A DNA stretch of 64,000 nt from a virus, in UHGV virus genome UHGV-1366640. One strand, 5' to 3'. A program made the position numbers and the translations under genes. Below are positions 49,101-49,618 of the stretch, one piece after another (the first letter of the stretch is position 1; every line of letters begins with the position of its first letter). Under the pieces are notes generated by a model. That model did not search any database. It was not told the origin of the DNA and saw only the letters and a program-made list of their open reading frames with translations.

Positions 49101-49281
49101 AGATGCTTGTCTGAATGCTGAGAATAGAGTTTTATTTCAAGTTGAATATCCTGATGATCTTGAGAGATTCAATCATCTTGCTGGTACATCTGCTGGTAGG
49201 AATGAATTGTTATCACACTATGGTGTCATAAGATCAATATCAGATTTAGAAGAGGATGAATCTGTAGATGAAGACTCCTAA
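46186..49281 (+). CDS. DNA topoisomerase II large subunit (T4 gp39+gp60-like, GyrB-type ATPase plus Toprim) interrupted by an intein
   Basis: VLDDIQHIRLRKGMYIGE and EAFDNAIDEA match the GyrB/gp39 ATPase motifs. The extein junction ELYI/CEGLSASGSIARPRNKEFQAVLPLRGKI matches ELYLVEGDSAGGS...LPLRGKILN. An in-frame TTG alternative start is at 46129. 657 aa once the intein is removed. Confidence 0.85.
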   Translation: MSNKTNNEEYTVDSIQVLDDIQHIRLRKGMYIGETYDPHHLFSEAFDNAIDEAQSGNSDLTIIKKFKDENGKLHYYVRDHGRGIPIGKILYGEKEVEALQILFTKCNSGAKFSSDNYRICSGTHGVGGVCICALSEWMRVTTIRDHRSVSLVTEFGEVKDLVYSDTDEENGVEIEFIPDPSEFESSEIPDSFIIDRCEVAQAMGYPVDLFINDKKIEIKINSLLDLIHLQPDVTEYCSDVIKVKDESTGESFIVGFKYTSDTKYRINGYTNLLYNSYGGTHTRCTIDAVTQAWSKYTEERSLVWDDCLLGMKIVVAAFIDNIAFSSQTKDKLTVPKSQLKTLTDLLSLKFEEWIESHKDLCTKLLDRFSEYRAAQRKLESQKEIMNVVQISKKDKSGRLRRGSSVVSSLIDCTSPSKEDTELYICLAGDTKIKMLDGTSPTLEELTERYKDPDEEFWVYSCDDSGEFIPAKAHNPRLTRYVDELYEISLSDGTIVKCTGNHKFMNRETMDWIRTDEMTVGTSLHHLSFGKTADGRCTVFVNKDSSYKEEPVYRIIGNLFYKEEHDRLFNRFRRTGDVLDRPQLHHKNCNKFDDRPENIECITQREHWDGYRHGSLSSQRITDYNRSDSHKRDMKIAWSNPELRKRMSVGGKHTDLSKQKLHDLAVDPNSRVCAKTWSETYNNSEKHHIDLITRFERFPNLKEKYSQRTSEMNKNPQIKRNQMRGRIGKIMRALFDRGLEFSEESWNLVNSQLHHSSVKYSTILKYFDSYEEACKFGQNWNYKVVSIKRISSPHTPVYCMTVDSTHRFALENGLISKNCEGLSASGSIARPRNKEFQAVLPLRGKIKNIAGYSLKDALKFETVANIVNSIGCGIGESADPEKSRYEKIIISADKDSDGSHIVALVLTAIVNLLPSIVKAGMVYILDAPFYKYWTKDGKHHYTSDFNEVPQWSFDNHKFLRFKGLGSMDDSDFKDACLNAENRVLFQVEYPDDLERFNHLAGTSAGRNELLSHYGVIRSISDLEEDESVDEDS
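47458..48636 (+). mobile_element. intein (393 aa) with embedded HNH homing-endonuclease domain
   Basis: Block A CLAGDTKIKMLDG, block B TGNHKF and block F/G VYCMTVDSTHRFALENGLISKN followed by Cys+1. HNH motif LHHKNCNKFDDRPENIECITQREHW. The terminal dipeptide is KN rather than HN. Confidence 0.8.
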
Positions 49282-49618
49282 TTTTCATTATGGTCAAGTA
49301 TGGCTCGTTCAGGATCAATCAAAAATTAGGCATGGTTCAATTCAACAGAAGATGAGACCGATGATCATAATTTCCAATGAGAAGAATAACATTTATTCAC
49401 CGATACTCAATGTTATTCCTCTCACTGGTTCAAGAGATCTTCCTCGAGGATCATATCAAATTCAATATTATCTTGGACTTCGTCAAACTCCAATTACTGT
49501 ATTGTGTGAACAGATTACGACGATCAGCAAAGAGGACTGTGTCAGATATCTTTATACATTGAGTGACGATATCTTGACAGAAGTTCAAAGGGCATTAAGG
49601 ATCCAATTATCTCTATAG
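49268..49618 (+). CDS. MazF/PemK-family toxin-like endoribonuclease
   Basis: GQVWLVQDQSKIRHGSIQQKMRPMIIISN...ILNVIPLTGS...ITVLCEQITTI follows the PemK/MazF pattern (GxV..v.f..g.E..k.RPalVlS...IPlT). Its start overlaps the topoisomerase stop. Confidence 0.65.
   Translation: MKTPNFHYGQVWLVQDQSKIRHGSIQQKMRPMIIISNEKNNIYSPILNVIPLTGSRDLPRGSYQIQYYLGLRQTPITVLCEQITTISKEDCVRYLYTLSDDILTEVQRALRIQLSL

Follow-up and report, generated by a model that had tools for sequence, protein, structure and literature searches.

In the MazEF systems of Firmicutes, the toxin gene is preceded by mazE and the two genes form an autoregulated operon. MazF-mx, a MazF homologue whose gene has no cognate antitoxin gene beside it, is encoded in the chromosome of the bacterium Myxococcus xanthus, where it is controlled by a transcription factor of the host. 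Its recruitment to a developmental programme is mentioned in PMC2701414. In Bacillus subtilis and Bacillus cereus MazF, mutating Arg25 or Thr48 abolishes activity (PMC7354611). Among phage proteins, RegB of T4 is a solitary, antitoxin-less RNase of a lytic phage with a toxin fold; it acts early and sequence-specifically, inactivating early mRNAs and speeding the switch from early to later expression (PMC3014915). PemK/MazF genes have been listed among the accessory genes of temperate staphylococcal phages (PMC6507118), and no functional study of a solitary MazF-like gene from a lytic phage was found in the searchable literature. Here, we analyse a PemK/MazF-type gene carried by a 64,000-nt (64-kb) stretch of the virus genome UHGV-1366640, hereafter the window. 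It is a full-length open reading frame (ORF) of 116 amino acids (aa), described by the following features:

49268..49618, + strand: putative MazF/PemK-type endoribonuclease gene, solitary; from Pfam PF02452, PDB, AlphaFold2 (AF2), Foldseek, alignment and the ratio of nonsynonymous to synonymous substitution rates (dN/dS)
49355-49357, + strand: codon of R30, a catalytic-position residue aligned with the Arg of the B. subtilis MazF 'VRP' motif (Arg25)
49424-49426, + strand: codon of T53, a catalytic-position residue aligned with the Thr of the B. subtilis MazF 'AAIT' motif (Thr48)
49252..49256, + strand: GAGGA, a Shine-Dalgarno-like motif 11 nt 5' of the MazF ATG, within the 3' end of the topoisomerase gene; read from the sequence

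The ORF matched the Pfam family PemK_toxin (PF02452) with an E-value of 2.1e-16 and a score of 60.5 bits (cut-off 23.1), its residues 9-114 covering positions 3-109 of the 109 in the profile, that is, the whole domain. The best-scoring phage family was PHROG 1936, 'MazF-like growth inhibitor' (E-value 1.9e-18), in which residues 4-115 aligned with profile positions 7-120 of 188, leaving the C-terminal third of the profile unmatched. Among PDB sequences, the nearest solved proteins were Staphylococcus aureus MazF (1e-8) and B. subtilis MazF/EndoA (1e-5), both aligned from end to end. In a 26-sequence alignment, R30 and T53 were invariant and E81-Q82, on the substrate/RNA-binding strand, was nearly so. 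The AF2 model, computed with 54 homologues as input, reached a predicted local distance difference test (pLDDT) score of 91.8 and a predicted template modelling (pTM) score of 0.84; when it was compared with the PDB using Foldseek, all of the 50 best matches were MazF proteins (best E-value 3e-10; template modelling score, TM, 0.78-0.85), and the model has the SH3-like barrel of MazF/Kid together with its C-terminal helix. The likeness to the Firmicute proteins (S. aureus 4MZM; B. subtilis EndoA 4MDX and 4ME7) thus extends to the predicted fold (TM about 0.8), the Arg/Thr pair and the E-Q pair, at 25-35% identity, whereas the phage gene has neither an upstream mazE nor an autoregulated two-gene operon and lies within a replication operon.

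CcdB and MazF/Kid belong to one broad SH3-like-barrel superfamily. CcdB, the gyrase poison of the F plasmid, acts on GyrA and has no RNase active site, in contrast to the phage protein with its conserved MazF Arg and Thr. The earlier note on this DNA, made by a model from the letters alone, had recognised a PemK/MazF fold signature, and the Pfam, PHROG 1936 and AF2/Foldseek results bear this out. It had also drawn an analogy with CcdB and gyrase, which fails on the same data: no CcdB profile was found for the ORF at E<=1 in the Pfam scan, and no CcdB structure occurred among the 50 best PDB matches of the model. A CcdB-type identity was rejected, as the sequence profile, the conserved RNase active site and the predicted fold are all those of MazF. 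Judged by sequence and predicted structure, the protein is MazF-type, not CcdB-type.

Selection on the gene was assessed using a sibling contig, L092, which matches the window in gene order and in the start-stop overlap. The two MazF genes are separated by about 6 non-synonymous and 33 synonymous differences, giving a dN/dS of 0.034. The corresponding values for the two topoisomerase subunit genes are 0.09 and 0.07, such that MazF is at least as constrained as they are. Two more divergent MazF homologues, with 59% and 52% identity, retained 44 invariant positions. On the basis of the low dN/dS and these invariant positions, sequence comparison indicates that the gene is functional and under strong purifying selection. 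Its codon use is slightly off the genome mean without being an outlier (codon adaptation index (CAI)-like value 0.64 versus 0.70; GC content at third codon positions (GC3) 0.31 versus about 0.25).

The gene lies in a group of genes that also encodes both subunits of a type II topoisomerase:

45789..45817, + strand: intrinsic-terminator-like hairpin, with a 12-bp stem and a T-rich tail, upstream of the operon
46129..49281, + strand: topoisomerase II large (GyrB-like) subunit gene; Pfam HATPase_c, DNA_gyraseB, Intein_splicing, HNH_3, Toprim and DNA_gyraseB_C; PHROG 543
49638..50696, + strand: gene for a 352-aa protein with HMUDK_hel as its only domain (PF18723, 5e-53; PHROG 2396), starting 19 nt after the MazF stop
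50745..51095, + strand: orf116, a conserved 116-aa protein without family (no Pfam or PHROG match), overlapping the start of the medium-subunit gene
51058..52941, + strand: topoisomerase II medium (GyrA/ParC-like) subunit gene (PF00521, 1.1e-42; PHROG 551)

The MazF ATG (49268-49270) falls 14 nt inside the large-subunit ORF, whose TAA occupies 49279-49281; across the overlap, the topoisomerase frame reads GAT GAA GAC TCC TAA and the MazF frame ATG AAG ACT CCT AAT. In the more divergent relative L001, GAGGAA precedes the MazF start at the identical spacing of 11 nt. The start codon had indeed been placed inside the last codons of the large-subunit gene when the sequence was first read, and the 14-nt overlap confirms it; the ORF had also been placed between the two topoisomerase subunit genes, a position that stands, with the amendment that the interval holds two further genes. 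The operon genes are all on the + strand and tightly packed, and no convincing terminator was found between the hairpin at 45789-45817 and the medium-subunit gene. Because of this context, early or middle expression of MazF would fit.

A dedicated antitoxin was sought around the gene and throughout the window. The 3.15 kb upstream of MazF is the topoisomerase gene itself. Pfam scans detected no antitoxin domain (MazE, PemI or other) in the neighbouring small ORFs, and phmmer searches of the six-frame ORFs of the 64 kb, using five approximate MazE/PemI/ChpS sequences, gave only E-values >1. ToxI-like tandem RNA repeats (about 34-36 nt) were absent near 49268 in the window and in L001, and Rfam gave no match at the gathering threshold. 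Substitutions relative to L092 are almost confined to third positions of the annotated frames, and three of the alternative-frame or antisense ORFs that overlap MazF gain stops in L092. This pattern gives no sign of a hidden gene in another frame or of an antisense RNA under constraint, a reading supported by the high dS of MazF against L092 (0.67). Moreover, no conserved partner ORF accompanies MazF in L001 or in a third lineage, L002, the topoisomerase gene being the only element common to the flanks. The locus thus has neither the adjacent, co-transcribed and usually upstream cognate antitoxin of type II MazEF systems (MazE/PemI, of the AbrB or RHH type) nor the repeat array that lies just upstream of the toxin gene in type III ToxIN-like systems. 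The MazF gene is locally solitary. This agrees with the remark in the earlier note that no antitoxin-sized ORF precedes it, and the inspection of both strands around the gene, for an ORF or a small RNA, returned no antitoxin-like ORF, no conserved antisense ORF and no Rfam match.

The sole antitoxin-sized candidate nearby is orf116, and nothing supports an antitoxin role for it. Although 8 synonymous changes separate it from its counterpart in L092, the two products are 100% identical; searches for distant homologues gave none, the recovered contexts being those of the close lineage only, and its AF2 model is poor (pLDDT 43.8).

The reading we favour, albeit tentatively and with a probability of roughly 0.45, is that the gene encodes a catalytically competent, antitoxin-free and sequence-specific endoribonuclease that is made together with the replication genes and acts on host or phage RNA. 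From the sequence, the model and the comparison with known systems, we infer an RNase activity, its targets and a biological role as follows. MazF would be a stable accessory gene of one large-myovirus lineage and would share a transcript with the topoisomerase II and replication genes; in the window strain, its translation would also be coupled to that of the large-subunit gene. The protein would then be synthesised before or during replication, with no dedicated antitoxin encoded beside it, and could cleave host RNA and possibly early phage RNA, contributing to phage takeover or to an early-to-late switch in the manner of RegB. T4 RegB is the closest functional analogue of this proposed role, although the two proteins have unrelated folds (RelE/YoeB-like for RegB, MazF/Kid for the phage protein), no sequence relation and different host groups. 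Two of the roles suggested at first reading, a host shut-off RNase and counter-defence, remain plausible candidates.

Several observations weigh against a free RNase of this kind. MazF is missing at three of the six related topoisomerase loci examined and is hence dispensable for the lineage. The antitoxin search covered the 64 kb of the window, whereas the contig measures at least 98 kb, so a distal antitoxin is possible. Furthermore, the phage does not appear to spare its own transcripts. UACAU is the motif cut by S. aureus and B. subtilis MazF. We compared word counts in the whole window, and in the late and early modules, with a Markov null (3-6-mers) and a synonymous-codon shuffle (4-6-mers). 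On the sense strand of the phage, UACAU showed no avoidance (87 observed versus 93 expected under the Markov null, and 86 versus 75 under the shuffle), ACA was not depleted in the phage sequence, and no strand-specific depleted 4-6-mer stood out under either null; depletion was confined to palindromes (CTAG, ACGT) and to A/T-run or stop-like words. Phage transcripts are therefore not visibly protected, which raises the problem of self-damage. The explanation could lie in a longer or different specificity, in structured RNAs as targets or in control of the activity by an unrecognised partner.

The self-damage problem is the reason why substantial weight stays with the first alternative, in which MazF is the toxin half of a toxin-antitoxin (TA) pair. 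Its unrecognised antitoxin would be orf116, the product of a gene beyond the window or a host MazE that cross-reacts. Such a pair could serve superinfection exclusion, inter-phage competition or the timed release of the RNase upon decay of a labile antitoxin. An intact catalytic site combined with the lack of motif avoidance makes some control of activity seem necessary, and orf116, besides its perfect conservation in L092, has an acidic C-terminal tail and always accompanies MazF in the close lineage. Neutralisation by non-cognate MazE proteins is reported in PMC10893535, and the solitary Myxococcus MazF (PMC2701414) offers an earlier example of a toxin that lacks a canonical partner. We nevertheless regard a TA pair as rather unlikely: orf116 carries no antitoxin-family signal, its model is uninformative and another gene separates it from MazF; a different gene follows MazF in L001; and the approximate queries found no MazE-like ORF in the 64 kb. 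It is improbable, in turn, that the protein is a counter-defence decoy, that is, a MazF homologue which does not itself act as an RNase and instead disturbs a MazEF-type abortive-infection system of the host, for instance by heterodimerising with host MazF or occupying its regulators. Host MazEF influences phage development and phages do encode MazF inhibitors, such as AimX of phi3T and YosL (PMC10769878), and early co-expression with replication genes would suit the timing of an anti-defence function. A pure decoy, however, would not need the catalytic Arg/Thr and the RNA-binding E-Q that are kept across the clade; heterodimerisation is uncertain at only about 30% identity to Firmicute MazF, and titrating host MazE would free host MazF, to the detriment of the phage.

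The remaining alternatives concern the position of the gene. In four contigs that represent three divergent lineages of the phage group (window, L092, L001 and L002), MazF lies directly 3' of the large-subunit gene, and this adjacency has been kept despite 41-48% protein divergence and differing flanks. The start-stop overlap is restricted to the close strains (window and L092), the two genes being separated by 279 nt in L001 and 70 nt in L002. Three further relatives, whose topoisomerase C-exteins are 48-65% identical to that of the window and so fall in the same range of divergence, carry in this slot a 65-aa unknown ORF, a GIY-YIG homing endonuclease (L090) or an HD-domain protein. The inter-subunit gene of Bacillus phage SP-15 is unrelated to any gene here, and none of 80 more distant metagenomic MazF loci has a topoisomerase neighbour. 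Judging by the intein, by the homing endonuclease and by the topoisomerase genes that are split in relatives, the region between the subunit genes is evidently a hot spot for mobile or accessory genes. The simplest reading is a single ancient insertion of MazF followed by vertical inheritance with losses, in which the association with the topoisomerase is positional: it lets MazF be expressed alongside replication genes and does not reflect a CcdB-like interaction. The earlier note had called the association suggestive; adjacency limited to one phage lineage, a variable slot and the loss of the overlap in L001 and L002 do not sustain this, and a topoisomerase-linked regulator is the least supported of its candidate roles. 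We consider it very unlikely that the position after the large-subunit gene reflects functional coupling, whether through topoisomerase binding or through processing of the operon mRNA that sets subunit stoichiometry. Least likely of all is a protein of the MazF/CcdB fold acting on a type II topoisomerase, of phage or host, through binding or regulation: the shared position in the four contigs and the coupling in two of them speak for it, while the absence of a CcdB profile, the 50 of 50 structural matches to MazF, the conserved RNase active site, the unrelated genes in the slot of relatives and of SP-15, the 0 of 80 distant loci and the overlap lost in L001 and L002 all stand against it. Functional linkage to the topoisomerase was accordingly rejected as unsupported by the relatives, by the distant loci and by SP-15. 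Finally, MazF could be selfish or hitch-hiking cargo of a recombination or homing hot spot, of little benefit to the phage. The neighbouring HNH intein, the GIY-YIG gene of L090, the split topoisomerase genes of L089-L091, the patchy presence of MazF and its slightly atypical codon use would agree with this, whereas a dN/dS of 0.034 and retention at 52-59% identity indicate selection on the protein. A selfish function would look alike in this respect, and we hold this origin to be improbable, about as much so as the decoy.

We also compared the protein with its wider family. A profile-free, exhaustive search of 1.8 billion representatives returned 1547 matches, of which only one exceeded 50% identity and the next ranged from 35 to 43%. 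Among the 150 best representatives, 110 are longer than 135 aa and combine the MazF domain with a C-terminal extension without a Pfam domain or, rarely, with repeated MazF domains. Some relatives (P0004 and P0010) are polyproteins in which two to four MazF domains follow one another: a chain of 471 aa has four matched stretches and one of 368 aa has two. Homologues with 26-37% identity occur in 68 phage records of INPHARED, usually without an annotated antitoxin; the carriers include temperate gut and Lactobacillus phages as well as the lytic phages LpeD (Herelleviridae, where the gene lies beside a helicase) and Perkons. The nearest relatives of the window protein are growth inhibitors of this PHROG 1936 type from phages or prophages, which have already been annotated in lytic phages of Firmicutes. 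Examples within PHROG 1936 are gp119 of Thomasclavelia phage TR-TP1, gp090 of Lactobacillus phage LpeD and ORF37 of Psychrobacillus phage Perkons. These proteins share the MazF domain and the conserved Arg/Thr with the window protein, which is a bare domain of 116 aa, while most PHROG 1936-type relatives are longer. The window protein forms a subclade with P0002 and P0003, marked by RG-x-YQ-x-Q-[YF]Y where the others have LPTHV and by its location after the topoisomerase II large-subunit gene. The gene is therefore a new member, in a short-form subclade, of an already catalogued phage MazF-like group; no functional characterisation of PHROG 1936-type phage proteins was found in the searchable literature.

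The window is part of a large, lytic-type myovirus genome with a GC content of about 35%, all genes on the + strand and no tRNAs. It encodes a portal, a prohead protease, a major head protein, a tail sheath and an amidase endolysin, and a 1795-aa ORF in the tail-gene region is taken to be the tape measure from its size and position only. The replication module includes two helicases, a RecA-like protein and a 5'-3' exonuclease. No DNA-level match, near or distant, was found in INPHARED; IMG/VR scans with MazF and with the topoisomerase gave no match, and neither did an exact-protein look-up of the window MazF among contigs. The nearest cultured relatives of the medium subunit, at about 30% identity, are those of Streptococcus phage vB_SagM-GXN1 and Bacillus phages SP-15 and HSE3, and the host is on this basis probably a low-GC, Firmicute-type bacterium. 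In the word counts of the whole window, ACGT occurred 2 times against 66-89 expected and CTAG 0 times against 58-91, over both nulls. This avoidance is consistent with evasion of restriction enzymes.

As regards the neighbouring genes, N-termini of homologues suggest that the true start of the large-subunit gene is probably the ATG at 46186 rather than the TTG at 46129. At nt 47458-48636, the gene encodes an intein of 393 aa, which bears an HNH endonuclease. L092 (7636-10014) has a 148-aa mini-intein at the same site without the endonuclease part, so that the two contigs provide a natural pair of full and mini intein. In L089-L091, the large-subunit gene is called as separate genes near the intein position, where L090 has a run of undetermined residues. 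Within the 279-nt gap of L001, a short ORF (3177-3400) follows a GAGGAGG ribosome-binding site and, by eye only, resembles an EF-Ts N-terminal/UBA-type helix pair; it is apparently frameshifted, which could mean gene decay or a mistake in the assembly. The order around the HMUDK_hel gene is the same in L092, L093 and L094. Its product comprises the helical domain of 5-hydroxymethyldeoxyuridine (5-hmdU) DNA kinase alone, without the kinase domain, and resembles the pyrophosphorylase-type enzymes of thymidine hypermodification pathways. It is thus a candidate thymidine-hypermodification enzyme, and its presence suggests that modified thymidine may occur in the phage DNA; no other genes of such a pathway were recognised in the window. 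Between the terminator-like hairpin and the topoisomerase gene, about 310 nt (45818-46128) may constitute the promoter/leader of the replication operon. Short direct repeats occur at 46013-46039 and 46101-46149, and a 66-aa ORF called in this interval has aberrant codon use (CAI-like 0.46, GC3 0.40) and is probably non-coding.

Solitary MazF-like genes are widespread in Firmicute phages and catalogued as a PHROG family, so the gene described here opens no new category. Coupling to the topoisomerase, if true, would give the viral MazF fold a new activity; the tempting link between a MazF/CcdB fold and a phage topoisomerase is, however, removed as unsupported. What the locus offers is a clean case, with an intact active site, purifying selection, no local antitoxin and a place in the replication operon, and hence an entry point into what may be RegB-like host shut-off or temporal control in phages of Gram-positive bacteria.

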